Positions 19,152-37,513 of a stretch of 64,000 nucleotides of DNA are shown in pieces. The first letter of the stretch is position 1. The number at the start of each line of letters is the position of its first letter. The stretch is from Desulfatiglandales bacterium (lineage in GTDB: Bacteria; Desulfobacterota; DSM-4660; Desulfatiglandales; Desulfatiglandaceae), in the NCBI GenBank assembly GCA_963662465.1, contig OY759599.1, positions 256,001 through 320,000 of the forward strand, read 5' to 3'. Both the position numbers and the translations under genes were made by a program. The notes under the pieces are model-generated. The model saw only the letters and a program-made list of their open reading frames with translations. It did not search any database and was not told the DNA's origin.

Positions 19152-20213
19152 TTGATGGATGAAGTTCCACCCTCCGAAGCATATCCGATGTTCCATTATG
19201 TATTTGATGGAATAAAGGGATCAAAACAACTAAATACATTTCGTTCCTACGGCAACAATTTGTTGTGCGCACTGGATGGAACTTATTCCTTTTCTTCCGA
19301 AAAGATCCATTGCGAAAATTGTAGCAGCAAAGAACATAAAAACGGAACCATAACCTATTTTTACTCGGCAATCACACCCGTACTTGTCGCTCCAGGTCAG
19401 AAAAAGGTTATTTCATTGCCCCCCGAGTTTGTAACGCCTCAGGATGGATACCAAAAACAGGACTGTGAAAATGTTGCCGCGAAACGTTGGATAAAGCAGT
19501 ATGCACCATTATACAAAGACCTTGGTATTATCATTTTGGGCGACGATCTGTATTGTCGGCAACCCATATGCACGTTGATATTGGATAAGGGCCTCCACTT
19601 CATCCTCGTTTGCAAACCTAACTCGCACAAAATACTCTATGAATGGGTCGAAGAGCTCCAAGCAATGAATGCCGTCGAAACGGTCGTGGAAAAGATACGG
19701 AGAGGTAATACTCATCATATACATACATACCGTTTCGTAAATAAGGTCCCTTTGCGTGATGGCGAAAAGGCTTTGGAAGTTAACTGGTGTGAACTGACCA
19801 TTACTTCCGCTGCGGGTAAGCGCTTATATAAAAACGCGTTTACAACCGATTTCACCATATCAAAAGACAATGTGAAACAAATCGTCGCCGATGGTCGGGC
19901 GCGCTGGAAAATTGAAAATGAAAACAATAACGTATTAAAAACAAAATGTTATCATCTTGAACACAATTTTGGCCATGGCAAAAAACATCTATCAAATTTC
20001 TTATTGACGTTAAATCTTCTGGCTTTTCTCTTCCATACTGCGTTGGAAATGTTTGACGACGTTTATAGGCGGATTCGAGAAGATTTGCCAACTCGAAAAA
20101 CCTTCTTCCAAGACATTCGAGCTTTAACTCGGTATGTCTGCTTCAATAGCTGGGAGGCAATGCTGACGTTCATGGCCCGGGGCCTCGATCTAGATCTCCC
20201 AGATACAAGCTAA
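19152..20213 (+). pseudogene. ISNCY-family transposase, 5'-truncated
   Basis: ALDGT..IHCENC, KQDCE..AKRW, LGDDLYC and RARWKIENENNNVLK..HNFGHG motifs. Confidence 0.8.
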
Positions 20214-20446: not shown

Positions 20447-21571
20447 TCAGCGCCTGTACGGATAACCGCCCCTTATGCCTTTTTTTGAAAACACAATTTG
20501 CCACAACTGATTCCTCCTTGACCTGAAACTGCCGGCGCATGAAAGAAGATAATAGGTCCACATACGATAAAACCGCTCATCATATGCATTTTTGAGTTTG
20601 ACCCAATTTTTTGTGAAATTGTGGTACCAGGCCATCAACGTTCTGTCATAGCATTGCCCGAAGCTATGCCAATCCTCGAGTACAAACAACCCTTCCGTTG
20701 CCGAGGTGATCTGTTTTGTGGACGGCAACATTGAATTCGGGAAAATATATTTATTAATCCAAGGGTCTGTTGAATTCGTGGAAGTGTTCCCCGCTATCGT
20801 GTGCAACAAAAAGAGGCCATTCTCTTTTAGACATCGATGGACAACTTCCATGAACGTCCTGTAGTTTTTTAATCCCACATGTTCAAACATGCCGATGGAA
20901 ACAATGCGATCGAATTTTTCCGTTAACGCCCTATAATCTTTCAGTTCGATTTTTATCTCAAGCCCTTGGCAGAAATTATTTACAAATTTCACCTGCTCCC
21001 GGGACACTGTTATGCCATGTACCCTAGCGCCATATTTTGCGGCTGCATATTTTGCAAAACCACCCCAGCCACACCCGATATCCAAAACCTTCATGCCCGA
21101 CTTTAATCCGATTTTTTGACAAATTAAGTCCAATTTAGCTTCCTGCGCTGTATCGAGCGTTTCGGCGTTTTTCCAGTAAGCACAAGAATAATTTAGCCCT
21201 TTATCCAGCATAATAGAAAAAAGATGATTACCGATGTCGTAATGCCGTTTGCCGACGATGTAGGCACTTGATCTGTTCTGAGTATTTATTACCTTTGCCT
21301 TCAGCATTATCCACAGCGATATTGCGGCATTTGTCTTTGATTTCTTGTCTAAGCGATTCTCCATGATTTTTTCAAAGAATTGATCAATGGCTTCACAATC
21401 CCACCAGCCATCCATGTAGCTTTCCCCCAGAGCAAGGGAACCTCCTGATAAAACCCTTCCGTAAAAATCGGGGTTGTGTATCCGGATATCCCAGGGTCTA
21501 TCCCCATTAATCTGAACATCAGAAGGGTTAAGCAATTTTTGAACAATCTTTTTCATTTTTGCCGCCTCCAT
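20447..21571 (-). CDS. cfa: Cyclopropane-fatty-acyl-phospholipid synthase
   Basis: LGESYMDGWW, HYDIGN, VLDIGCGWGG, SIGMFEHVG and WINKYIFP motifs. Confidence 0.95.
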   Translation of the reverse strand: MEAAKMKKIVQKLLNPSDVQINGDRPWDIRIHNPDFYGRVLSGGSLALGESYMDGWWDCEAIDQFFEKIMENRLDKKSKTNAAISLWIMLKAKVINTQNRSSAYIVGKRHYDIGNHLFSIMLDKGLNYSCAYWKNAETLDTAQEAKLDLICQKIGLKSGMKVLDIGCGWGGFAKYAAAKYGARVHGITVSREQVKFVNNFCQGLEIKIELKDYRALTEKFDRIVSIGMFEHVGLKNYRTFMEVVHRCLKENGLFLLHTIAGNTSTNSTDPWINKYIFPNSMLPSTKQITSATEGLFVLEDWHSFGQCYDRTLMAWYHNFTKNWVKLKNAYDERFYRMWTYYLLSCAGSFRSRRNQLWQIVFSKKGIRGGYPYRR

Positions 21572-21699: not shown

Positions 21700-21785
21700 T
21701 CAAAACGACAAGCGCACCAGCGCCTCCTCCGGGCCCCCGCCAAGACCGCAGAACTTTCAGGCGTCTGGTGCAGCCTTGGTTCGCC
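21700..21785 (-). other. Integron attC site (R' degenerate)
   Basis: Minus strand GGCGAAC-CAAG-GCTGCACC...GGTGCGC-TTGTC-GTTTTGA; closely similar to the sites at 33760 and 38148. Confidence 0.75.
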
Positions 21786-22143: not shown

Positions 22144-24047
22144 TTGATGCACTCGTAAAAAGTCAGGAAGCATTTAGGCCAAAATTATGATCATATACTC
22201 ATAATTATGAAGAAATATACCTGAACTTTTTTCAGCCGAGTTCGAAATAAGAAAAAATGCTCTTTGAAAACAAGAATAGCGTGAATTTGAGCAGAAGACC
22301 CTCCTCCCTGAGGTGTTTTAGCACTGTTCATAACCGTTTTGAGCGGCAGTTGCCCTGAAGAGGTTGATTGCTGTGGCTTTTAAGGTGGCACAAAACCGTA
22401 CTGCTTTAAGGCCCCTCACTCTAAGATGCTTAACTCCGGTTTTTCTGTCAAATTCAGACATGGCCGCTTCGACACCTGCACGCCACCGATAACGATCTTT
22501 GAATTCATCTGTTTGTTCATAAGATCTTCGTTTTGCCAATCGCATCTCTTTGGCCTTATAACGAAGGTAGTGGTTCTTTTTCCCTGTCTTTACCGGGCAC
22601 GTTTCCTGAAAAGGACACGCCATGCAGTGTTGAGAATCAAATATGGCGGTGTGCCTGGTTCCAGCTTTGTTTGTTTTGGTTTGGACCGGCGCATGACCTT
22701 CAGGACAGGCAAGAACAACGCCGTTTTCAGATGATTCAAAATCCGAAAGGTTCAGGTGATCTTCTTTCTTTATGGAACCCATAGTGGGGGCTAAAACCTG
22801 TACTCCCAGTGCCTCAGCTTTTTGACAATTCTCATCGCTGCCATAAAGGCTGTCCGCCAGGATTTCTTCGGGAGAGACATTGCGTTGTTTAGCAGATTCG
22901 ATAGCTGGTATCAGAGCATTTGCATCGCTTTCGTGAGAAGGCTCCACTTCGATGTGGGTAATCAAATTCAAACTGGTATCACTTTCACTATCTTTACTGT
23001 AGGTCTCCATGACCTGAACTTGATACCCTTGGCCTTTGTGACCACTATAGGTTGCATCGGGATCTGAAGGGTTTTGAAGAGAATTTGAGGGGATTTCCTT
23101 GGGTTTTTTCACTTCAACTTGTTTGCCGTCATCGGACACATTGCATTGTTCGTTCAAAACACGCTCAAGCAATTTGAAGCTATGCATGCTTTTGATTGCC
23201 GGGTGAAATTTGAATTGTCCAACCAAATCAAATAGATCTGAGCTTACAGAAGCAAGTGTTTTGGATGATTCTGAAGGTTTTACCATGGAAAAACATTGCA
23301 GAGATTTTTCAGAAAGATATTTGTCCCGGATGCTTGCATCTATTGCATCAAACAGCTCTTTGTGATTCCGCTTTAAATTGACCAGGAACTTATGGACAGT
23401 GGCGACAAAAATGCCAATTCTACCCAAACGCCGCATATTCGATTTGATATGAACAGAGTCAATCCTCTGGTTTTCGATATTGGAATTGAAAAGCAGTGCC
23501 GGTTTATTTGTAAAACGATCAAACACCATTGTATCCAGAGACTTTTCAGTAACGATCTGACGCATATTCCAGAAGGTTTTTGCACACATATACTTAGAGG
23601 CATCTGATTCATCAGTAATATTAAGAGCATAGTGCCACTGAATATTAAAAGCCAGCTGGTTTACGGTTTCATCGTCGGTGACGTCATGCGCTTGCTGGAG
23701 GAGTAGAACTCCAAGTACAGTGTAGAGTTCTTTTGTGGGGCGGCCAAAATCTTCTTTAAAAGAAGACGCTATTTCGTCAACGGGCAGTTCGCGGAGGAGT
23801 TCTTTTTGAAATAGCCCGGCCCACGATTGATCCAGCAAATCTCGACGTCTCGGGCTCAAAAAATGCCATGGGTCGAAAAGAACACCCTGATTTTGGTCTT
23901 TGATTCGAATCATACCGTGCACCTGAAGTTTGGTTGATGATATGACTCCTTACGTATCAAAATGTAAGGCAAAATGGAAGCGAAAAAGAGCTATATGCTA
24001 AAATATTTCAACAACTTAAATGAATTTGCTTTTTACGAGACCATCAA
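22144..24047 (-). mobile_element. IS1182-like insertion sequence
   Basis: Imperfect TIRs TTGATGCACTCGTAAAAAG and CTTTTTACGAGACCATCAA around a transposase. Confidence 0.8.
22318..23922 (-). CDS. IS1182-like transposase
   Basis: FGRPTKE, RIDSVHI, SDPDATY, ADSLYG, CPEGH..CMAC..CP and YRWRAGVEA motifs. Confidence 0.88.
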   Translation of the reverse strand: MHGMIRIKDQNQGVLFDPWHFLSPRRRDLLDQSWAGLFQKELLRELPVDEIASSFKEDFGRPTKELYTVLGVLLLQQAHDVTDDETVNQLAFNIQWHYALNITDESDASKYMCAKTFWNMRQIVTEKSLDTMVFDRFTNKPALLFNSNIENQRIDSVHIKSNMRRLGRIGIFVATVHKFLVNLKRNHKELFDAIDASIRDKYLSEKSLQCFSMVKPSESSKTLASVSSDLFDLVGQFKFHPAIKSMHSFKLLERVLNEQCNVSDDGKQVEVKKPKEIPSNSLQNPSDPDATYSGHKGQGYQVQVMETYSKDSESDTSLNLITHIEVEPSHESDANALIPAIESAKQRNVSPEEILADSLYGSDENCQKAEALGVQVLAPTMGSIKKEDHLNLSDFESSENGVVLACPEGHAPVQTKTNKAGTRHTAIFDSQHCMACPFQETCPVKTGKKNHYLRYKAKEMRLAKRRSYEQTDEFKDRYRWRAGVEAAMSEFDRKTGVKHLRVRGLKAVRFCATLKATAINLFRATAAQNGYEQC

Positions 24048-24722
24048 TAATTGATCCATGATAACCTCCATTCCTCCTCATTTGCGTTTTTCCGTGGCTG
24101 CCATTGATTCGAAAAGCGATCCTTGTAATGGGCCTCCTAAAACGCGGATGTCTTTTAACCTCTTATACAAAAGTCAAGACACTTTCGTCACAAAAAAAAT
24201 GATACTTTGGGTTTGCAATAAAAAACCAAAGTATAAGAACCCTCAGAACATTCTGAGAGCTCATCTCTCAGAATGTTGGGATCTATTTGATAATAATAAA
24301 CTTTTCAGCTGCGATGAAAATTGCAAATATCTTTGGCTAGACTTACATCCTTGCGGAAAGAGTATTTCCTCGGATTTGAAAATACTCAGACTCCCCCCTG
24401 CTGCCTCACTTTCTATGCCAAAATCCAAGATATCGTAAGCTCAAAAAACCTGTGATATCAAAAAATCAGATGGCTTGAACGAACGTTGTTATCATGCTAT
24501 CTCTCAGGGCCGGTCGTTCTGGGTATATATTGAGTTATGTTGCGGCCTGCCATAACCCCCTGAAAAACCCTTAATTTTCGCCCTCGCCACGAGATATCGA
24601 GATTAAGCAATAAAAGCAATAGTTTATTTCATATTTTGAGCAACCCGTCTCTCCAAGAGACAACATAATATTTTTACCTTATTCGCAGCTCTCCGTAAAG
24701 GGCTATTGTTTGCATGCCCCCG

Positions 24723-25742
24723 CTATAGACTGTCCAACCAGGCCATCAAATCCCCCTCATTTTCATAATGGAGTAATTCATCTATCTTGGAATCGTCCGT
24801 CAGGGCCGATTGCATGTGCCTCATGAACTGCCTTTGAATGTGGCGCCGTCGATCCAGGTCCAAATGCAGATAGATCGAAGTGGACTGGATGTTGTCATGC
24901 CCCAGATGATTCTTGATATCCGTGATGGGGTCACCGTTGTGGAGCATATCAACTGCTCGCGAGTGCCGGAATGAATGAACGGGATTGATATGTTTCAGAC
25001 GTTTTGGAGGGAGGGCCTTTTGGAGATATTTCCTGCAAATCCGGTAGATTCCATGGCGAGTGAATGACTCTCCCTTTTGATTGATAAAGAGCCGGTTTTC
25101 AAACATGGGCTTTGGGGATATCCGGTATTGTCGAATGTACAACTGAAGCAGGTCACAGGTTTTTGACTCAAGCTTTATGAGTCGAAACCGATTGCCCTTT
25201 CCCAGAATACTGAGGGTTTTCCGGTTGGGGTTAAAATAGTCGATATTCAACTCTGCAATTTCACTGGCCCTGGCTCCGGAATCGTAGAGCAGATGGAGCA
25301 CGGTGTAATCCCTGAACCCCTCTTTTCGTTTAAAATCAACCGCCTGAAACACCCGAAGTATTTCATCCTGGTAAAGAAATCCGATAAGACTCTTCTGCTC
25401 CCGTTTCTGGGGAATATTGAGGATAGCGGTTGCGGCATCCTGTTGATCCGGATGCATAAAGCGAATCATTTTGGCAAAGGATTTGAGTGCCGCAAGACGA
25501 TGATTCCGGGTTTTGGCCCCATTTTTCCTGTCACTTTGAAGATTTTCAAGGAACGAGACGAGAAGTTCCGTTTTAATATGTTCCACACGAAGCGATTTGA
25601 CCTTGATGTTGTAAAACGATGCCGCAAAGGGAAGAAAAATCCTGAAAGCATCCCGATAGGCCTTTATGGTCTGGTAACTGAGCCCCCTGATGGAAGTCAG
25701 GTATTGATCAAAGAACTGATGCACCAGGGGTGAAAGTTTCAT
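24723..25742 (-). CDS. Tyrosine recombinase (RitC-like, outer element)
   Basis: YDSGARASE, GKGNR, HSFRHS and LGHDNIQSTSIY motifs. Confidence 0.92.
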   Translation of the reverse strand: MKLSPLVHQFFDQYLTSIRGLSYQTIKAYRDAFRIFLPFAASFYNIKVKSLRVEHIKTELLVSFLENLQSDRKNGAKTRNHRLAALKSFAKMIRFMHPDQQDAATAILNIPQKREQKSLIGFLYQDEILRVFQAVDFKRKEGFRDYTVLHLLYDSGARASEIAELNIDYFNPNRKTLSILGKGNRFRLIKLESKTCDLLQLYIRQYRISPKPMFENRLFINQKGESFTRHGIYRICRKYLQKALPPKRLKHINPVHSFRHSRAVDMLHNGDPITDIKNHLGHDNIQSTSIYLHLDLDRRRHIQRQFMRHMQSALTDDSKIDELLHYENEGDLMAWLDSL

Positions 25743-25937
25743 TTGTTTACTCTCTGCCAAAGACAAAAATCAACGAGATCTTTGCGATTCATGGCATCTG
25801 AAACCCGGAGATAAACACTGGTGCAAATGTAATCCGTGTGACCCAGATAGGCCGCCAGTATGGGTAAAGCGTTTTGGGCGGATTCACCTGATTTCCGGAT
25901 TCTGTTGAGGGTGTTCACGGCAAAAGAATGGCGCAGC
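25739..25937 (-). pseudogene. C-terminal part of the interrupted outer RitB-like recombinase
   Basis: LRHSFAVNTL...LAAYLGH..TSVYL; joins 29421-30205 in frame once the insertion is removed. Confidence 0.9.
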
Positions 25938-26097
25938 AAATCCAAACGTTTGGATTTGCTGCGTTATCCAAACCTAAATAAAATCCAAACCTTTTCTTAA
26001 ATAACCTGATATTTAAGTATTTTTATCGGAAAAGGTTTGGATTTTATTGCATAACGTATGACCTTTTTATCAAACAAATGAACAGGAGGTCATACGA

Positions 26098-27336
26098 ATG
26101 AATGTACAAAATCTGCGGGATAATTATCCCAAACTCATTTCCTACATGGAAACCAACGGTTACTCAAAAACTTACGTTGACAGTTTTAAAAGGGAGATTA
26201 AAAAAACTCTGGCGTCTGAGGATTCAGAGGAATGGTCATGTTATAAAGATGTATATTTGGGATACACCAAAAAATCATATTCTCCTAACACTCTTCGCGA
26301 TAAACGGACTGTCATTGGAGCCATTGAGCAGTTTGATGTTCATGACAGATACCCGAATGGAAGGTGCAGGCATCAACTCTTCGAAAGGGGTTCTTATCCC
26401 TTGTTGTCACCGGAATTCAAATCCGTCATCGATCTTTACCATGAAGTTGAAAAGAAACGTGGCAAGAAAAAATCTGCTACCGTTTATACCGAATCCCATA
26501 ATGCATCCACATTTTTCTTATCCCTTCAGCAAAAAGGAATTAACGGCCTGGGAAAGACTACAGAAGAAGCCGTGCTTTCAATATTTATGTCCCCGGATGA
26601 AACCCTGCTCAAGAGCTGTTCTTACAAAAAAAACATTGCTGCGGTATTGAAGGCGTGTATCCCTTATCATCCAGAAACATGTCCTCAAATTTTAGCCTTC
26701 CTTCCCGCTTTAAGGGAAACTCGAAAAAATATTCAGTACCTTACATCGAAGGAAATCCAGAAAGTTAAGGGCGTACTGGCTGATGGTGAAAATCTTCTTA
26801 CGCTCCGTGACAAAGCAATTGGAATGCTTGCACTTTACACAGGCGTGCGTGGCTGTGATATTGCAGGATTGAAACTTGACGATATTGACTGGAACAGGGA
26901 TTTTATTGATATCAAACAGCAGAAAACAGCAATCCCTCTTGAACTTCCTTTAACAGCAGTTGTCGGAAATGCCATTTATGACTATCTGACGTCAGAGCGC
27001 CCACGCACAGAAAGCAGATATATTTTTGTTTCCCAGCTTAAACCATATGAACAACTGAAAAACAAAAGCATTGGCAACGTGGCAGCTCTGATCATGAAAG
27101 CAGCAGGTATCCGGCAGTTAAAAGGCGATCGGAAAGGATTTCATATCTTCCGCCATCACTTTGCCACAGAACTTTTGGGGAACGGAGTTCCTCAGCCTGT
27201 TATCAGCAGGACACTTGGTCACACTTCACCAGATTCTCTTGAATCATACCTAAGAGCAGATTTCCCGCATTTGAAGGAATGTGCCATCAGCATAGAAGGT
27301 GTTCCTGTACCAAAGGAGGTGTTTTACCATGAATAA
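26098..27336 (+). CDS. Tyrosine recombinase (RitA-like)
   Basis: YTGVRGCDI, QQKT, HIFRHHFA and LGHTSPDSLESY motifs. Confidence 0.93.
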   Translation: MNVQNLRDNYPKLISYMETNGYSKTYVDSFKREIKKTLASEDSEEWSCYKDVYLGYTKKSYSPNTLRDKRTVIGAIEQFDVHDRYPNGRCRHQLFERGSYPLLSPEFKSVIDLYHEVEKKRGKKKSATVYTESHNASTFFLSLQQKGINGLGKTTEEAVLSIFMSPDETLLKSCSYKKNIAAVLKACIPYHPETCPQILAFLPALRETRKNIQYLTSKEIQKVKGVLADGENLLTLRDKAIGMLALYTGVRGCDIAGLKLDDIDWNRDFIDIKQQKTAIPLELPLTAVVGNAIYDYLTSERPRTESRYIFVSQLKPYEQLKNKSIGNVAALIMKAAGIRQLKGDRKGFHIFRHHFATELLGNGVPQPVISRTLGHTSPDSLESYLRADFPHLKECAISIEGVPVPKEVFYHE

Positions 27337-28303
27337 ATTCACTTCTTTTCTTGCGCCGCTCATGCAGGCATATGTTTTCTATCAAAAAGCATCCGGACGT
27401 TGGAGTGAAGCTTCTTCTTATGGACCAAACCTCATCCTGTTTGACCGATACTGCAAGAAGCAACATCCGGAAGCTGCACTTCTATCTCAGGAAATGGTGA
27501 ATGGATGGTGCCATCAGCGCGACACAGAATCCAACAATTCGTGCAGATCAAGAATCAATGTTGTTGTAAGTTTTATACGATACTTGAGAAAGCGCGGAAA
27601 AACAGATGTCATGGAGCCTGAAATTCCAAGGAAAGAGCGATGCACATATATTCCCCATTCTTTTACAGGTGTTGAGCTGGAAAATTTTTTCCATGCTTGT
27701 GATAGCCTGCCTTCAGTATCCCACACTCCCGAACAGCGATCACGGAAAATAACTATTCCTGTGTTCTTCCGTTTTCTTTACAGTAGTGGAATACGAACTT
27801 ATGAGGCAAGAATGCTGAGGGTTAAGGACGTCGACTTGTGCAATGGGATTATGAATATCCGTTATTCCAAGGGGAGTGCTCAGCACTACGTAGTGCTACA
27901 TGACTCCATGAATAAACTTTTAAAAATATATGACGAAGCTATACGGAAGCAGTACCCTCACAGAACTTATTTTTTCCCTGCAAAAGGTAACACTTTCCAT
28001 AAAAGGAAATGGGTACAGACAAATTTTCGGGAATTGTGGGATAAATATAATAGCTCTCATGCTACTGCATATGAGCTCAGGCACCATTATGCCATAAAAA
28101 ACATCAACCGCTGGACAGATGAAGGCTTTGGGTTTGATGCGAAACTGCTCTATCTCAGCAAAAGCATGGGACACAGCACACTGGAAAGCACAAAATATTA
28201 TTATTCCCTTGTTCCCGGAATGGCTGACATCTTGGAAGAAAAAACAGGAATGGATTTCGAAAGCATTGTGCCGGAGGTGGATTATGAAGAAAGCGACGAA
28301 TGA
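27329..28303 (+). CDS. Tyrosine recombinase (RitB-like)
   Basis: YSSGIRTYE, SKG, YELRHHYA and MGHSTLESTKYY motifs. Confidence 0.93.
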   Translation: MNKFTSFLAPLMQAYVFYQKASGRWSEASSYGPNLILFDRYCKKQHPEAALLSQEMVNGWCHQRDTESNNSCRSRINVVVSFIRYLRKRGKTDVMEPEIPRKERCTYIPHSFTGVELENFFHACDSLPSVSHTPEQRSRKITIPVFFRFLYSSGIRTYEARMLRVKDVDLCNGIMNIRYSKGSAQHYVVLHDSMNKLLKIYDEAIRKQYPHRTYFFPAKGNTFHKRKWVQTNFRELWDKYNSSHATAYELRHHYAIKNINRWTDEGFGFDAKLLYLSKSMGHSTLESTKYYYSLVPGMADILEEKTGMDFESIVPEVDYEESDE

Positions 28304-29333
28304 GTCTGTTGTAATCGCACGCCATATCAATGCTTTTTTGAATGAATATGTTCCTTCCCAGAAAAGTCACAGCAGCCACACATTGAAATCCTATCAGTAT
28401 GCTCTGGCTTTATATATCGGTTTTTTGGAGGCCAAAAAAGGAATAAGTACAGAAAGCTTGTGTGGTGGATGTTTCAGAAGAATAATAATCGAGGAATGGC
28501 TGCAATGGCTGATAGAAGTGCGTTGTTGCAGGCCGGAAACCTGTAACAACCGGTTAGCATCCTTAAGAGCATTCCTAAAATACATGGCCAGTAGGGAAGT
28601 CCGCCTGCTGTACCTTTCCGAGGAGGCAACAAGAATTCCACGGAAAAAGGAAATACGCAAAAGAGTAAAAGGGATGAGCAAAAAAGCAGTACGGGTATTG
28701 TTATCGGTTCCGGATTTATCCAGAAAAACAGGGCGAAGGGATCTATCACTTATGATTGTCATATACAGCACTGCCGCCAGAATAGATGAAATACTGTCTT
28801 TAAAAACAGAACAACTTCATTTGGACGTGGAAAAGCCGAATATCACCATCATTGGAAAGGGAAGCAAAATAAGAACCCTGTATCTTCTACCTAAGGCTGT
28901 TGCACATTTAAAAAAATATCTGGGAGAATTTCATGGTGATACTCCAGATCCAGAAGCTTATGTTTTTTATTCAAGGAACACCGGATCACATGGGAAAATG
29001 AGTCAGACTGCAGTAAACAAGCAACTGAAAAAACATGCCAGAGCCGCCCATGAAATATGTGATGAGGTACCACGAGATCTTCATGCGCATCAACTGAGAC
29101 ATGCAAAGGCCTCCCACTGGCTGGAAGATGGCATGAATATCGTACAAATTTCATTTCTTTTAGGGCATGAGCAGTTACAGACAACGATGATATATATGGA
29201 CATTACCCTAGAGCAGGAATTGAAAGCCCTTGCAACACTTGAAGATGAAAACGACAAGAAGGTATCAAAGAAATGGAAAAATCAAAAAGATGGTCTGGCG
29301 GATTTCTGTGGCGTTAAGTCAATGAAGAAGTAA
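28284..29333 (+). CDS. Tyrosine recombinase (RitC-like)
   Basis: YSTAARIDE, GKGSK, HQLRHAKA and LGHEQLQTTMIY motifs. Confidence 0.93.
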   Translation: MKKATNESVVIARHINAFLNEYVPSQKSHSSHTLKSYQYALALYIGFLEAKKGISTESLCGGCFRRIIIEEWLQWLIEVRCCRPETCNNRLASLRAFLKYMASREVRLLYLSEEATRIPRKKEIRKRVKGMSKKAVRVLLSVPDLSRKTGRRDLSLMIVIYSTAARIDEILSLKTEQLHLDVEKPNITIIGKGSKIRTLYLLPKAVAHLKKYLGEFHGDTPDPEAYVFYSRNTGSHGKMSQTAVNKQLKKHARAAHEICDEVPRDLHAHQLRHAKASHWLEDGMNIVQISFLLGHEQLQTTMIYMDITLEQELKALATLEDENDKKVSKKWKNQKDGLADFCGVKSMKK

Positions 29334-29420
29334 AAAATAAAATCCAAACTTTTTTGTATCGAATTCCTTAAATATCAGACATCTTTAAAAAAGGTTTGGA
29401 TTTTATTTAGGTTTGGATAA

Positions 29421-30205
29421 CGCAGCGAATGAGGTGTGGGTCCGTTGAAGTTCACATTGCCCAAAACTTTTCTGGGTTGCTTTAAGCCAGTGTCACTTAC
29501 CGCCTTATGAAACGCGGCCCTGACAGTAGTGTCACTCAAACTCCGCTCTTTTCTGCCGGCAAACAGAAAGGGATTCTTATCGTTTGGGCGAAGACTTTGG
29601 CGGACAGAGAGATAGTTTTCGATCTCTGCCACAACTTTTTTGGGAATCGGAATGATTCTGTCTTTGCCGAACTTGGTCCTTTCAATATAGAGGGTGGCAT
29701 CATCCCGGCGGTAGTTGCACCGCAAAAGTTTGATGGGTTCAGAGATCCTTGTTCCGCACCGGGCCATGACCAGCACCACCATATAAATAGCCAGGTCAGT
29801 CAAAAAACATCCGTTGGTCGTTCGAATGTTTTTGGAGACCGACTTCAACAGCAGGTCGATTTGATCGGGAGAGAAAACAAAGGGTACAACGACGTTTTTT
29901 TTAAGCCTCGGAACATCCTGTAAGGGATTATGGTCCACATAACCACGACCGGCAAGAAAATGGAAGAAGCCCCGAATCGAGGAAAAAATAGCGTTGATAC
30001 TCCGCGTTTCCTGGGTGAGTGCTGCTCTCATTTCAAGGAAAAAATCAGGCGTAAAAGAATGCCGGTCAGCTTCTGTTTTCCGAAGATAATCATCAAAAGT
30101 CAGAAGATGTGAGAGAACAGACCCCTTTTTATAGCCGAGACTTTTACGACGATACCGAAGGTAATCCTCCATCTCAGAGGCAAGAAAGCTTTTAAAGGGT
30201 CTCAT
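29421..30205 (-). pseudogene. N-terminal part of the outer RitB-like recombinase, interrupted at PHSLR|H
   Basis: CGTRISE and TKFGKDRIIP motifs; ends ...PTPHSLR and then reads into the inner TIR. Confidence 0.9.
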
Positions 30206-31139
30206 TGAGCAAAACCTTTCTCATCAGTTCGATGTGGATGTGGAGATACCGCTGAGTGCACCGAATGTTCCGATGCCCCAGCATTTCCTTGATTTCATAA
30301 ATGGAACGACCCACAATCAGTAAACCCTGTGCATAGCTGTGTCTGAGCCAATAGGCACTCGAAGACAGTCCGGCTTCTCTCATGGCGTTTGAGATATGAA
30401 AACCAACCAAATTGGGCCTCATTGGCCTATAGGGCTTGTCGCAGGTCAAAAATAGTTCTCTGCAATCGCTTTCAGACCGGGCCTTGTGGACATAAGCCGC
30501 AATGGCTTTGAGGGTCTTATGGGGAATGGGCAGCACAACGGGATTGCCATTTTTCCTGCTGTTTATGGTGATCTCTCCTTCTTGAAACGATATGTCATCC
30601 AGGGTGATGCGGCTGATCTCATCGGGTCTCAAGCCCAACGAGTAGGCCAGAACCGTCATGGCATAGGTTCGAATCTGTGTTGGCGTCTCCAGGCTGAGGC
30701 TTTCGAAGAGTGTCTTGATTTCATTCGGCCGGAGAAATTTTGGCGGTCTTAACTGGTTGAACACCCGGGGACTCACCACCCCATAAGACAGGTCTTTTCT
30801 GGTAATCTTTTCGTCAAACAGATAGCTTAAAAATCTTCTCAGCTTACCTCGATAGATATTTCGGGTCTGGGTGGAAAAGGATTTGAGAAAATCGGCCTGA
30901 AAAGCATCAATATGTTCGAGCTTCAAACCGGAAAGTGTAATTTGGTGCTGTTCAAGATAGAGGTGAAATGAAGCCAGGACCCGTCTTGTGGCTTTGGCAT
31001 TCTTACTGGAAATGACCTGACGTTCACGGATACAAAAGAGATGCTTCTCGTAAATATCGGGGAGGCGAATCTGGTGGTTTTGAACCGGGTGGGGCGCCAT
31101 CCGGTCTTTTCCATACCGTCTGATATCATCTGTTCCCAT
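30192..31139 (-). CDS. Tyrosine recombinase (RitA-like, outer; N-terminus possibly shortened)
   Basis: YSLGLRPDE, YWLRHSYA and LGHRNIRCTQRY motifs. Confidence 0.88.
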   Translation of the reverse strand: MGTDDIRRYGKDRMAPHPVQNHQIRLPDIYEKHLFCIRERQVISSKNAKATRRVLASFHLYLEQHQITLSGLKLEHIDAFQADFLKSFSTQTRNIYRGKLRRFLSYLFDEKITRKDLSYGVVSPRVFNQLRPPKFLRPNEIKTLFESLSLETPTQIRTYAMTVLAYSLGLRPDEISRITLDDISFQEGEITINSRKNGNPVVLPIPHKTLKAIAAYVHKARSESDCRELFLTCDKPYRPMRPNLVGFHISNAMREAGLSSSAYWLRHSYAQGLLIVGRSIYEIKEMLGHRNIRCTQRYLHIHIELMRKVLLNETL

Positions 31140-31140
31140 T

Positions 31141-31527
31141 TCAGATCTCCCTAATAGATTGCTGGATAAGGTTCTCTATTTTCAACCTTCCATGGTTTTG
31201 CCGGTGCTTTTTGGGGGCCGATTCTTTGGGTAAATCGAGTACCTGGAAAAGGCTTCCGTCAAATGCAATCAAATCCGTTTTTATCAGAGAGTCCCGGGCT
31301 TCAATGTATTCATCCACGGTGATTTTCAGAAACTTACAGATCCTGTCATAGGAGTAATAGGAAAGGCCGTTTCGATCGGAAGCCAAAACAAGAAAGAAGT
31401 ATAAAAGGATTTCCTGAGGCCTTAAAGCGTCCAGAAAACCATCCCGAAGGAACTTGTGAGGAATAAAACTGAAGCCGCCATTAATGCGTCTGACCCGATC
31501 CGGGTCCAGTATCTTTTTCTTGATCAT
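31141..31527 (-). CDS. Small HTH-like protein carried by the element
   Basis: LLYFFLVLASDRNGLSYYSYDRICKFL resembles the winged-HTH N-termini of replication-initiator-like proteins; GGAG RBS. Confidence 0.6.
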   Translation of the reverse strand: MIKKKILDPDRVRRINGGFSFIPHKFLRDGFLDALRPQEILLYFFLVLASDRNGLSYYSYDRICKFLKITVDEYIEARDSLIKTDLIAFDGSLFQVLDLPKESAPKKHRQNHGRLKIENLIQQSIREI

Positions 31528-31661
31528 GATTGACTCCTTTCCGGGTCTGATTTGGGGAAATCAAGATGCATGAGTTCATCAAGCTGGCTGAACAACCATC
31601 GACAAACCGCTTTTTGGTATCTTTCATGCTGATTCCTCCCCGTGGAGCCAATCTACGACCT

Positions 31662-32273
31662 TTAAAGGGGTGGGTCAGTCCCCGTATGGTGTTGGAAGCG
31701 GTTATTCCTGATTTTTTCTGATCCAGGGTGGGTACAAAAGCCCAAAGGAGGCGGCAGAATCTGTAGAAATGGGGCTGCATATTGCCGGAGTTCTGGAAGA
31801 ACATATGACACGCAAAGCGTCTGGCGAAAGGACGACAAGGTCGGCTCACAGGCTGAAAACATAGAAGGCATAAGTTCGATCAACATCTTTAATGCTGATC
31901 GGATGGGAAGGATTCTCCGTCTAACCCAGCGAAGGGCACCCGGGAGAAAAATATCAACGCGAATCCTTTCAACTGCCTTCTCTTGAGATGGGGCTTTTTC
32001 AACTTCTTCGATGATGTTTTCGACTTGTTTCAATTCCCCCGGTAGCCTTGCCGATAAACAGTCCGGGAGAAAGCTGAATGTTTCATGCCCCATTTTGCAG
32101 TACCATCTGGCGATTTTTGTTCCTTCCGGATACTTTCTACTGTAGGTGCCGTTCTTACCAAAACCACAGCCACCTTCAGGATGAATCGGGCATTTTTCAA
32201 GCTTTACGTCCTTCCAGGCTTCGCTTTGAACGTATTCCTCAGCGGATAAATCCGTTGCAAACCTCAGTTGCAT
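31662..32273 (-). CDS. Zn-ribbon protein (DUF6431-like) carried by the element
   Basis: CPIH..C..NGTYSRK...RWYC..HETFSFLPDCL. Confidence 0.6.
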   Translation of the reverse strand: MQLRFATDLSAEEYVQSEAWKDVKLEKCPIHPEGGCGFGKNGTYSRKYPEGTKIARWYCKMGHETFSFLPDCLSARLPGELKQVENIIEEVEKAPSQEKAVERIRVDIFLPGALRWVRRRILPIRSALKMLIELMPSMFSACEPTLSSFRQTLCVSYVLPELRQYAAPFLQILPPPLGFCTHPGSEKIRNNRFQHHTGTDPPL

Positions 32274-32318
32274 AACAAAGCCCTTGCCTCAAATGGAAAT
32301 TAATGAGAGCATCCGGTC

Positions 32319-32720
32319 ATGGTCAAAATCGGTCGAAATGCACCATGTCCCTGTGGCAGTGGTAAAAAGTATAAGAAATGCTGCTTGTCGGCACAACCAG
32401 AGAAATGGCCCGTCAAAGAGCAGCGGTTCATACCGGTCTACACGGAACTTGATCAACTGTCGAACAGCGTCGTTGATCTCATAAAACAGAAAAAACTCGA
32501 TGAAGCTGAAATCATATCACGGAAATTTCTTGATGAATACCCCGACCAAGTCGATGGCTTTAACCGGCTGGCGATGGTTTATGAGGCCCGTGGTGAAAGA
32601 AGAAAGGCCGCGGAGTACTTCAGAAAAGCCCACCGTTTCGCTATGTCAAATGAGGGTTTCGACCAAGACATTGTTGATTGGTATTTATCGGAGGCGAAAC
32701 GGTTGGAATCTCAAAAATAA
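32319..32720 (+). CDS. SEC-C motif plus TPR protein
   Basis: [20 protein letters not shown] followed by TPR-like helices. Confidence 0.85.
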
Positions 32721-32965
32721 GATGGAATGAAAGGAATTAAATGGATTCCTTATAAAAGGAATCTGGGAATCAAAAGGAAGGAATCAAATCTCGCAACATA
32801 ACGGACCCCGCAACATAAATTGAGAGTATCCAAAAAAATCGGCACCATCATAACCTTGTGATACCCCTTATATGCCCCCAGCTACCGTCATGCTTGCTTT
32901 TCCCTTTCCAGCGTAGCATAAGAAATCACCTGTGAAGGATTTCAAGCTGGGACTACCTCATTTTG

Positions 32966-33760: not shown

Positions 33761-33845
33761 GCCAACGTTAAGCTCACCAGCGCTTCCTCCGGCCCCCGCT
33801 AGGACCGCAGGACTATCAGGCGTCTGGTGCAGCGCTTGGTTCGCG
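33760..33845 (-). other. Integron attC site
   Basis: Minus strand CGCGAAC-CAAGC-GCTGCAC...GTGAGC-TTAAC-GTTGGC; L'' carries the extra G. Confidence 0.85.
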
Positions 33846-35655: not shown

Positions 35656-37513
35656 TCAAGCATTCCAAAGGCAAGCCCTTTCGGGGCTACCCGGTTGTGA
35701 CGTTTTATGCTCTTTACGCCTGTCTGCCTTCTGCTGACTGCGTTGGGCATATTGTTTCCTGAAATATTGTTCATATTTCGGATCGAAGGGGTTCGCATCC
35801 CCTCGAATTTTGACATGGCGTTTTATCTTGACGTCGTAAGCCTTCTCAAGTTCAATTCTGGCGGATTTCGCATAGCCGTCCTTGATCACCGCTGAAAAGG
35901 ACCACGGGCGAGATCCTTTTGACCAGTATTTATCCACCAGCCAACTCTTACTCTTGCCCGAATGTTTCCTCCTCATCCATTGCCAAATATAGCTGTAGAT
36001 ACGGTGATCTACAAGCCCGAAAGTTCTACCGGAAACCACATGCCTGTGGTAATTGGCCCACCCCCTGATTTTGGGATTGAGTACTTTAATCAGAATGTCG
36101 GCTCTTGATGCCGCATGCTTTCGGATTGTTTTCCGGATATTGCCTAAAAAGGCTTTCACGTTTTTGCGAGAGGGCTTTATCAAAAGTTTTCCTCCGTATT
36201 TGCGTGAACTTTGTCCGAGAAAATCAAATCCTTCTTCTATCCTTGTGATCAACGTCTTTTCCGCTGAAAGCGAAAGACCTCTTCGCTCCATAAATGCTTC
36301 AATTTCCAGCTTGATCTCATTTAGCATCTCTCTGGAATTCCCGGTGATGATAAAATCATCAGCGTAGCGGATTACGTTTATCTTGGACCGTATATTTCCC
36401 TGAATTCTTATCGGGGCGGTGCTTTTGGCTGCCGCTTCCAGACCATCCAGGACCATATTAGCCAATGTTGGAGAGATAATCCCGCCTTATGCAAAGAAAG
36501 TAATTATGCAAAGTAAACCGTAAAAGCCATAATAATTCAAGAGATTCTTGTTGATTTGCTTAGCATAATCTCCACTTATGGTGAATGAGAAAAAGTTCAA
36601 AAAATCATTAGACAAAACAAAGGAGCTATTTTTATCCAAAACAAACGAAGAATGCTGCATCATTTACTTGGCTTTCAAGTCTGAAGTAGTCGTGATATTA
36701 TGCAAAGTAAATTCAGTGCATATGCTTGAAATATTGCACCTTAACTGATTTACTTTGCATAATCGTTAACTTTGCATAAGGCGGGTTATGCAAAGCTTTG
36801 CATAACCCGCCTTGCGGGGTTCCTCTGTATGTCGGATAGAGCTTGCCTCCTTCTACATACCCGGCTTTCAGGCATTTCTGAAGCGTCCGTTTATCCATCG
36901 GGATATTTTCGAGTATCCATTGATGGCTGATTTCATCAAAACAGGCCTTTATATCTCCCTCCAGAATCCATACGGGTGAGTAGCGCTTGGCCAGAGAAAT
37001 AAAACACTGACCGATGGCATTCGCACATCCCCGATAGGGTCTGAACCCGTAAGAGTTCGGATCGGCGGTGGTTTCCGCCACCGGATCAAGCGCCAATTTG
37101 TACAATGCCTGCATGGCTCTGTCCTTCATTGTGGGAATGCCCAATGGGCGTTTCTTGCCGTTTTTCTTGGGTATGTAAATTCGGCGCAGCGGTTTGGGTC
37201 GGTAGGCTCTTCGGCGCAGGTCGTTTACCGCTTGCATTTTGTCAATGTGGGTGGACCATATGACTTTATCCACTCCCGGTGTGCGTTTACCCCGGTTGGA
37301 AGTAACGCGCTTGATAGCCAACAACTTGGCATAAAACGAATGAGTCAAAAGCCACTGTATCACCTTGACTTTTCCCCATCGCTTTTCCTTCACAGCTTTT
37401 GCGATACGCACCTGCAGTCTTCTAACATGCTCCCCGGCGGTTTTCCAGTTTATGGATTTCCACCAGTTTGTTCCGTCCAAAGGTGCACCAGTCGCCAGAA
37501 CGGCCACCGTCAT
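35656..37513 (-). pseudogene. Group II intron reverse transcriptase/maturase, split at GTPQGG|IISP
   Basis: KRPLGIPT..DRAMQ, SYGFRP, GDIKACFD, GTPQGG | IISPTLAN, RYADDF, FDFLG and LNPKIRGWANY; no obvious HNH domain. Confidence 0.93.
36487..36779. mobile_element. 293-bp non-autonomous RIT-like mini-element
   Basis: Ends TTATGCAAAG-N7-TTATGCAAAGTAAA and TTTACTTTGCATAA-N7-CTTTGCATAA; no recombinase-sized ORF. Confidence 0.85.

Follow-up and report, generated by a model that had tools for sequence, protein, structure and literature searches.

Recombinase-in-trio (RIT) elements are described, in the parts of the literature consulted here, as trios of recombinase genes spanning 3.5 kb, with a 28-29 bp repeat and a palindrome, which have been found inserted in radC and in a transposase gene and which occur as truncated trios on pHG1 (PMC3414803). 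Their insertions inactivate radC and IS66 tnpA (PMC2864759), and their proteins fall into RitA, RitB and RitC subgroups (PMC8138268). As of 2023, no laboratory had reproduced RIT transposition, and both the target specificity and the movement of RITs appear as untested in Table 1 of a paper of that year (PMC10214605). Here, we describe a RIT inserted in the catalytic motif of a recombinase that belongs to another RIT, in a stretch of 64,000 nucleotides from a Desulfatiglandales bacterium (contig OY759599.1, positions 256,001 to 320,000; "the window"), together with related insertions that recur at the same codons of diverse tyrosine recombinases. The features of the locus are as follows (window coordinates; TIR, terminal inverted repeat; ORF, open reading frame).

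25739-30205, minus strand: interrupted host (outer) ritB, whole extent, from the ORF list and in silico excision
29421..30205, minus strand: host ritB 5' part, codons 1-262, running 14 residues into the TIR and then to a stop (276 aa)
25739..25931, minus strand: host ritB 3' part with His263, His293 and catalytic Tyr302
25932..25937, minus strand: core 3, 6-bp crossover core between the palindrome and the host ritB 3' half
25938..25957, no strand: perfect 20-bp palindrome made up of the 10-bp end motif twice, back to back; inserted DNA
25958..25963, plus strand: core 2, internal 6-bp core between the palindrome and the left TIR
25964..25995, plus strand: left 32-bp TIR; end motif at 25964 and 25981, inverted third copy at 26035-26044
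26098..27336, plus strand: inner ritA, 412 aa; R251 K276 H349 R352 H375 Y384
27329..28303, plus strand: inner ritB, 324 aa; R156 K181 Y248 R251 H282 Y290
28284..29333, plus strand: inner ritC, 349 aa; R166 K192 H269 R272 H295 Y304
29389..29420, minus strand: right 32-bp TIR; end motif at 29411 and 29394, inverted third copy at 29340-29349
29421..29426, minus strand: core 1, host ritB sequence comprising the Leu codon, the Ser base before it and two bases of Arg262

An earlier note on this DNA had proposed that a RIT is nested in the catalytic motif of another RIT, and the RIT-in-RIT nesting at 25739-30205 is confirmed. Deletion of 25938-29426 (3489 bp) in silico yields one 325-aa RitB frame, which reads through Pro-His-Ser-Leu-Arg-His-Ser-Phe-Ala. 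Excision of the TIR-bounded part alone leaves ritB frameshifted (277 aa), showing that the insert includes a 6-bp core and the 20-bp palindrome beyond the left TIR; the note is correct on the TIRs and mentions neither the core (25958-25963) nor the palindrome (25938-25957). Uninterrupted orthologues of the host ritB, at 84-89% nucleotide identity, are present in genomes G004 (two copies) and G005 (one). An assembly artefact is unlikely given the single-contig genome, a second copy of the same design and the empty orthologues, and a chance match was rejected likewise, the upstream half-motif occurring at only 5.7e-4 of positions in this genome and uninterrupted orthologues being available. The insertion point lies within the Arg262 codon, with His263, His293 and Tyr302 (numbered by hand) beyond the break, so that host RitB is predicted to be dead, its catalysis lost through the insertion.

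Along the target, the order is 5' half, core 1, TIR-trio-TIR, core 2, palindrome, core 3 and 3' half, and the inner element measures 3457 bp from TIR to TIR. The 32-bp TIRs are perfect, as the note had stated (25964-25995 and 29389-29420; 38 bp counting the adjoining 6-bp cores), and in the window element all three cores are identical. The three recombinases that it had recognised all match PF00589 above the cut-off and possess the R-K-(H/Y)xxR-H-Y residues, which are invariant in 33, 39 and 35 distinct family members for ritA, ritB and ritC, respectively, with Tyr replacing the first His in RitB. The genes lie on one strand and overlap by 8 and 20 bp (4-8 bp is typical for RITs in the literature), and their best matches in one reference trio, that of pHG1, are position-matched (RitA 38% over 165 aa, RitB 28%, RitC 28%). 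Judged by trio order A-B-C, size, TIRs (28-34 bp in RITs), palindrome and catalytic residues, the inner unit is a RIT element. Its GC content is 40.8%, versus 49.5% for the genome. Two other classes were considered and rejected: a DDE insertion sequence (IS), as there is no DDE ORF inside and the flanking 6-mers differ in 10 of 20 paired elements, and an SE/Tn554-type element, as three recombinase genes, the longest of 412 aa, fill the inner element, with no Tfp/Srap or TnpC gene and no large recombinase.

Like the RITs of Cupriavidus metallidurans CH34 and C. necator pHG1, the inner element has an overlapping A-B-C trio of about 3.5 kb, TIRs and a flanking palindrome, occurs as identical copies in one genome and is inserted in genes of other mobile elements (radC and IS66 tnpA in the described cases). 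By contrast, the codon-level target rule, the three-core layout and the orientation flip found here are absent from those descriptions, as far as the consulted text extends (PMC2864759, PMC3414803). Three contiguous integrases, a long inverted repeat and a conserved 20-bp palindrome are also features of the mobile integrase cassette (MIC) of Bifidobacterium longum (PMC2430713). The MIC, compared by description only, differs in being flanked by IS3-type sequences, and the consulted part of that paper describes no target rule or core analysis.

Two further copies are present in this genome (G000), and all three sit in recombinase genes. Copy 2 (C1:7045550-7051367) differs from the window copy by one mismatch in 3.5 kb and an IS insertion; it lies at the same codon, in another RitB whose identity to the window host RitB is 40-60%, and its three cores are all different. 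The IS, of approximately 2.3 kb and with a 5-bp duplication, interrupts the copy-2 ritB (G000:C1:7047256-7049580) and forms a third nesting layer. Copy 3 (C1:2870100), a remnant, shares the 3' junction of the window copy and has been disrupted by an insertion where ritA starts and by a deletion that ends at an outer-element-type end motif (G000:C1:2867878-2870100). The copy-3 insertion encodes an ORF that, judged by its motifs, is presumably reverse-transcriptase-like. The inner part of copy 3 diverges at 12 of 313 bases (4%) and the outer part at 7 of 1407 (0.5%), a contrast that suggests either a separate insertion or later conversion. Among the 53 recombinase ORFs detected in the genome, most of which carry the motif, the inner-element family is found only in RitB-type genes. 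Searches of 60 related genomes for further copies of the inner element, and of 400 genomes of its phylum for the palindrome, found none. The inner element is probably mobile as a unit, as implied by near-identical copies that occupy different targets and by RitB identities of 81-96% across several phyla.

A protein scan of GTDB yielded 20 loci with RitB identities of 81-96%, in deltaproteobacterial metagenome-assembled genomes, Bacteroidales, Lentibacillus, Clostridium and others, and a scan of metagenomes for the TIR pattern yielded at least 141 stretches; this partial, non-random sample underlies the flank counts. From 171 ends, including the genome copies, we dropped 18 with fewer than 45 bases of flank, removed duplicates by host flank and discarded 2 as mis-typed (L029 left, with the palindrome plus one extra base, and L034, from a distant family). 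The final set comprises 80 ends without palindrome (upstream flanks) and 61 with palindrome (downstream flanks). Upstream, 53 of the 80 flanks listed end in His-x-Leu/Phe/Ile plus the first two Arg bases (59 with Tyr allowed), and PF00589 is matched in 33 of the 63 long enough for the scan. With Pfam, our own profile and a BLAST panel combined, 43 of the 80 listed are confirmed recombinase genes, each one cut at that codon (43/43). Downstream, 54 of the 61 flanks listed begin with a His codon and 47 of the 61 listed are confirmed recombinase 3' halves, 45 beginning at His and 2 at Arg; Pfam alone confirms 17 of 51 scanned. As controls, reversed fragments reached at best E 0.12, and 0 of 222 opposite-polarity translations matched the recombinase profile.

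The targets are diverse, with a median identity of 24% (n = 32 long targets). RitB-like proteins make up 29 of the 47 confirmed downstream targets listed (approximately 60%), and the next gene downstream is a recombinase in 10 of 13 RitB-like targets with enough context versus 0 of 7 other targets. The other confirmed downstream targets, some 40%, are stand-alone integrases, one of which is paired with an IS91 transposase. In genome G061, 3 of 13 copies of one IS91-linked integrase gene are occupied, all three insertions lying in recombinase genes. Off-target sites comprise ORFs for DUF1353, DnaG zinc-finger, DruA-profile and serine-recombinase proteins as well as non-coding frames. The forecast of the earlier note, that insertions would recur at conserved codons of diverse tyrosine recombinases, is borne out by the tabulated flanks, which break at His-x-Leu/Phe/Ile-Arg followed by His; instead of random, non-recombinase sites, 43 of 80 upstream and 47 of 61 downstream flanks listed are confirmed recombinases. 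Its claim that the element is aimed at these codons holds as regards strong targeting and fails as regards exclusivity, 21 of the 80 upstream flanks listed having no coding motif. That targeting of the recombinase catalytic codon is strong but not exclusive is well supported. Self-targeting was also considered: the element's own three genes carry the motif, yet no flank is more than 50% identical to the element proteins. At one related locus (L107), both TIRs lie approximately 500 bp apart in a gene-less miniature of the inner-element family, beside an ORF with a DruA-profile match.

The target logos show A at -4, T/C at -3, G at core position 6 and C-A-T/C at +2 to +4, with a bias extending to +12, and in the sequences the two His codons give an A-T/C step at mirror positions around the core, as in the element arms. 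The 21 upstream flanks without coding motif, some of which look like later deletions, have A at -4 in 14 cases, a His-like triplet in 11 and the last core base in 16. Since many of these flanks retain the DNA positions, the data favour recognition of the target as a DNA sequence; the symmetric A-T/C steps around the core plus approximately ten further bases on the 3' side would supply the specificity. The dyad with its 3' extension occurs at 23 genome sites, 18 of them in recombinase ORFs. If the element instead had a loose specificity for the short dyad, and recombinase genes dominated because other insertions had been purged, off-target sites would be expected, and these exist; the minimal dyad is indeed common (943 sites). 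Yet recombinase ORFs account for 4% of those minimal sites (35/943) versus 54% of upstream and 77% of downstream flanks listed, and 3 of 3 copies in this genome and 3 of 3 in G061 lie within recombinase genes. Most bacterial genes are dispensable, so purging alone could hardly give such a bias, and we regard this explanation as highly improbable. A further proposal is that the target protein or its transcript guides insertion, for example through a Rit subunit that binds the host recombinase, and that disabling a competitor is the selected function. It would account for the over-representation of RitB-like targets (29 of 47 confirmed downstream flanks listed) and for other RIT lineages striking other codons of the same catalytic region. 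However, off-target sites keep the DNA motif in non-coding frames, the targets are only 24% identical, and no guide-like feature was seen in the inner element, making guidance by protein or transcript barely credible.

The arrangement of the ends and cores bears on how the element moves. The palindrome, found in 3 of 3 genome copies and 61 distinct related ends listed, is always on the 3' side of the target and never faces a recombinase 5' half. Both orientations of the trio occur: among assignable ends listed, the target 5' half adjoins ritA in 32 and ritC in 33, and the palindrome adjoins ritA in 22 and ritC in 29. Two neighbouring integrase copies in G061 hold elements that are identical over 3467 bp and oppositely oriented. 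At the third G061 insertion (L023), the core of the variant allele is kept at the 5' junction and the other core lies at the 3' junction, and L059 and L183 have a common 3' flank with a different core 3. Core 3 is variable among relatives and often foreign to the target, giving a non-canonical reading in 5 of 47 recombinase targets listed, compared to 0 of 43 for core 1. A hand count of the 20 paired elements gave 6 with three equal cores and 6 with three different ones; equality is confined to cores 1 and 3 in 4 elements, to cores 2 and 3 in 3, and to cores 1 and 2 in 1. A 6-bp target duplication was rejected, with core 1 equal to core 3 in only 10 of 20. Across the 61 ends listed, cores 2 and 3 are equal in 23, versus a shuffle mean of 1.3, and unequal in 38. 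Core 2 resembles the codons of a former target and its logo matches those of cores 1 and 3, as expected if core 2 is a relic of an earlier target.

We assign a probability of roughly 0.62 to the inner RIT moving by tyrosine-recombinase crossover at a 6-bp core, via a circle with two usable cores around the palindrome. Crossover would take place at 6-bp cores that need not match. Recombination of cores 1 and 3 would produce a circle with a two-fold symmetric joint, in which two cores flank the palindrome, and integration through either of them would lead to either orientation of the trio. The core of the target would stay at the 5' junction, and the 3' junction would receive either the target's core or a carried one. 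Because carried cores would come from homologous codons, 42 of 47 still read Leu/Phe/Ile-Arg, and precise excision would usually restore the target gene.

Seven paired elements are flanked on either side by 5'-type sequence, and two are bounded by a palindrome at each end; these elements with like ends may be second-site recombination products or misassemblies. Such an excess would be expected if the targeting were the same, the orientations arose by in-place inversion between cores 1 and 2, and the internal site recombined with second targets without excision, and cores 1 and 2 are in fact inverted and TIR-flanked. On the other hand, the numbers are small, misassembly yields such products too, and in-place inversion alone cannot spread copies or bring in foreign cores. 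Furthermore, a palindrome joining two recombinase tails was seen in none of 7 viral matches or 400 other genomes, and strand-change joints were absent from the contigs of four runs, two possibly from the source sample. We therefore consider inversion unlikely. A second rival to the circle invokes an intermediate that is a folded single strand or ends in hairpins, with copying regenerating the palindrome as a hairpin. Folding of the left end is strong (z -10.5), some palindrome variants are changed symmetrically in both arms (L055, L084, L059, L135, L021 and L030), and cores 2 and 3 are equal in 23 of the 61 ends listed; such intermediates were proposed by Nielsen 2017 after circles could not be mapped, according to the consulted part of that paper (PMC5737581). 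Against a hairpin, folding is expected of any inverted repeat, cores 2 and 3 are unequal in 38 of the 61 ends listed, and several palindromes have one-sided mismatches. In addition, every core has the form of a 6-bp spacer flanked by inverted arms, which is the kind of duplex site that tyrosine recombinases usually act on. We judge the hairpin route to be quite unlikely.

Several points weigh against movement by a circle with targeting at the level of DNA. The excess of equal cores 2 and 3 needs repeated hops among similar targets or an extra copying step, and a true empty allele was available for comparison at one junction pair alone, L023; in copy 2, the host protein is compatible with either core. 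The four runs, searched as contigs only, yielded no circle joints, empty sites or inversion joints and are thereby uninformative on circles, and short metagenome contigs may be chimeric across repeats. As to targeting, the 21 upstream flanks listed without coding motif are joined by 16 with the motif that are unconfirmed as recombinases, and 14 of the 61 downstream flanks listed are unconfirmed as well. Most of the 53 recombinase ORFs of the genome carry the motif yet stand empty. With 943 genome sites, only 35 of them in recombinase ORFs, the minimal dyad is too common to explain the recombinase bias, and the longer consensus is circular because it was derived from recombinase genes.

Most likely, the element would benefit from a landing site that mobile DNA often carries, that is conserved from phylum to phylum and that can usually be spared, the breaking of the host recombinase being a consequence of insertion. 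The insertion may immobilise the outer element. A conserved neutral landing pad explains the data as well as a benefit from disabling the outer element does.

Compared to other multi-recombinase systems, the inner element resembles SE/Tn554 in having several tyrosine recombinases, target specificity and a 6-bp spacer, and in its junctions, one of which keeps the target spacer while the other has a 6-bp footprint that was carried in (PMC10214605). SE/Tn554 elements have one circle-joint spacer, no terminal palindrome in the description consulted, and gene sets IntA/Tfp/IntB/Srap or TnpA/B/C (PMC10214605). Strand-biased copy-out that leaves no empty site is a further mark of the SE/Tn554 type. 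Unlike SE/Tn554 elements, the inner-element family has a 3' junction equal to the 5' core in half of the paired cases, and both orientations. Non-identical 6-bp cores are likewise tolerated and carried in the coupling sequences of Tn916-type elements, which are mentioned in PMC10214605. Our literature search, made without Ricker 2013, Van Houdt 2009 and the supplementary tables of PMC3414803 and PMC2430713, found no statement of RIT insertion at catalytic codons.

The three-core design extends to other RITs. The pHG1 RIT (L221:1080-4605, NZ_CP039289.1) has it together with a 20-bp palindrome, and its insertion point is the probable catalytic Tyr codon of an annotated site-specific integrase gene; the 5' part of this target matches no Pfam family, the integrase label resting on the RefSeq name and visible motifs. 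A RIT of a different lineage in G005 (L219, G005:C16:1-4400) shares the design and sits in an orthologue of the window host ritB, three bases downstream of the window site. A third RIT family has four copies in this genome (G000:C1 1.58, 2.49, 4.39 and 7.14 Mb), all at one repeated target and with the same end design; the one at 7.14 Mb is inverted, and that at 4.39 Mb has received a 4.7-kb insertion. In a sister subfamily (L224, L227), the same end motif and palindrome adjoin a Toprim-like ORF (weak Pfam match, L224 only) and not a recombinase gene. A 4.9-kb 'phage' record (MT838797), considered as a candidate RIT circle, proved to be linear and to hold an integrated distant RIT. Tn916-type elements differ from the inner RIT in having a single integrase plus Xis, loose A+T-rich targets and a conjugative lifestyle.

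The outer element and its neighbourhood complete the description of the locus:

24723..25742, minus strand: outer ritC, 339 aa, intact; its start overlaps the host ritB stop
30192..31139, minus strand: outer ritA-like recombinase, 315 aa, intact, short for RitA
24535..32818, no strand: outer element, probable extent with inferred ends, approximately 4.8 kb minus the insert

The outer element contains short inverted end motifs, the trio, an HTH_36 ORF, a 203-aa ORF and a SEC-C/TPR ORF. Its extent was judged by homology to an uninterrupted relative (G000:3489355-3494139), the 10-bp end motif being a weak marker with 42 occurrences in the genome. The trio, intact in relatives, has its best matches in pHG1 RitA (29%), RitB (23%) and RitC (31%), and by sequence fits the RIT A-B-C types. 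As a unit, the outer element seems to depart from the RIT norm, which is a RitA of approximately 400 aa with a doubled core-binding domain in a unit of approximately 3.5 kb: its RitA has 315 aa, and between inferred ends it would measure approximately 4.8 kb, with three extra ORFs. This cargo (HTH_36, 203-aa and SEC-C/TPR ORFs; window 31141-32720) is unusual for a RIT; it accompanies the outer trio in both genome copies, and the 203-aa ORF has no Pfam or NCBIfam match. In the uninterrupted relative (G000:C1:3489355-3494139), the native core equals core 3 of copy 2, reflecting either former occupancy or ancestral codons. The surrounding area is rich in mobile elements: DDE transposase ORFs at 19152-20213 and 22318-23922 flank a 374-aa ORF (20447-21571), which we presume to be methyltransferase-like, and a 70-bp repeat, approximately 90% identical and 12 kb apart (21704-21774 and 33764-33833), brackets the nested elements. 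The ORF at 35656-36465, with a YADD motif, is presumably a group II intron reverse-transcriptase fragment.

Lineages of RIT are found at different conserved positions: Leu-Arg in the inner-element family, Arg-His in G005, probably the catalytic Tyr in pHG1, and a Toprim-like gene in the sister subfamily. The RIT class itself is known and the targeting by the inner element is a RIT variant, part of which may be contained in Ricker 2013, reportedly with a list of preferred RIT target genes, possibly integrases. Tentatively, and with more doubt than confidence, RIT lineages could be site-specific integrators that have been re-aimed at different invariant codons in the enzymes of other mobile elements, one Rit subunit acting as an exchangeable target selector and the two-core palindromic joint leaving a live attachment site. 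If so, RITs would switch recombinase genes off reversibly and shuffle their domains, and would offer a natural supply of retargetable integrases with no requirement for core homology. For RIT movement, the inner-element family provides a consensus for the target, places the crossover boundaries exactly, predicts a circle joint and gives a rule for orientation, which reduces the question to one PCR and one assay on plasmids. An element that homes on the codons best conserved in an enzyme family, one present on most mobile DNA, would have a route into many phyla, and truncated integrase and RIT genes would be explained as nested insertions. The target rule and the crossover points of a little-studied class of transposons are likely revealed by this family.

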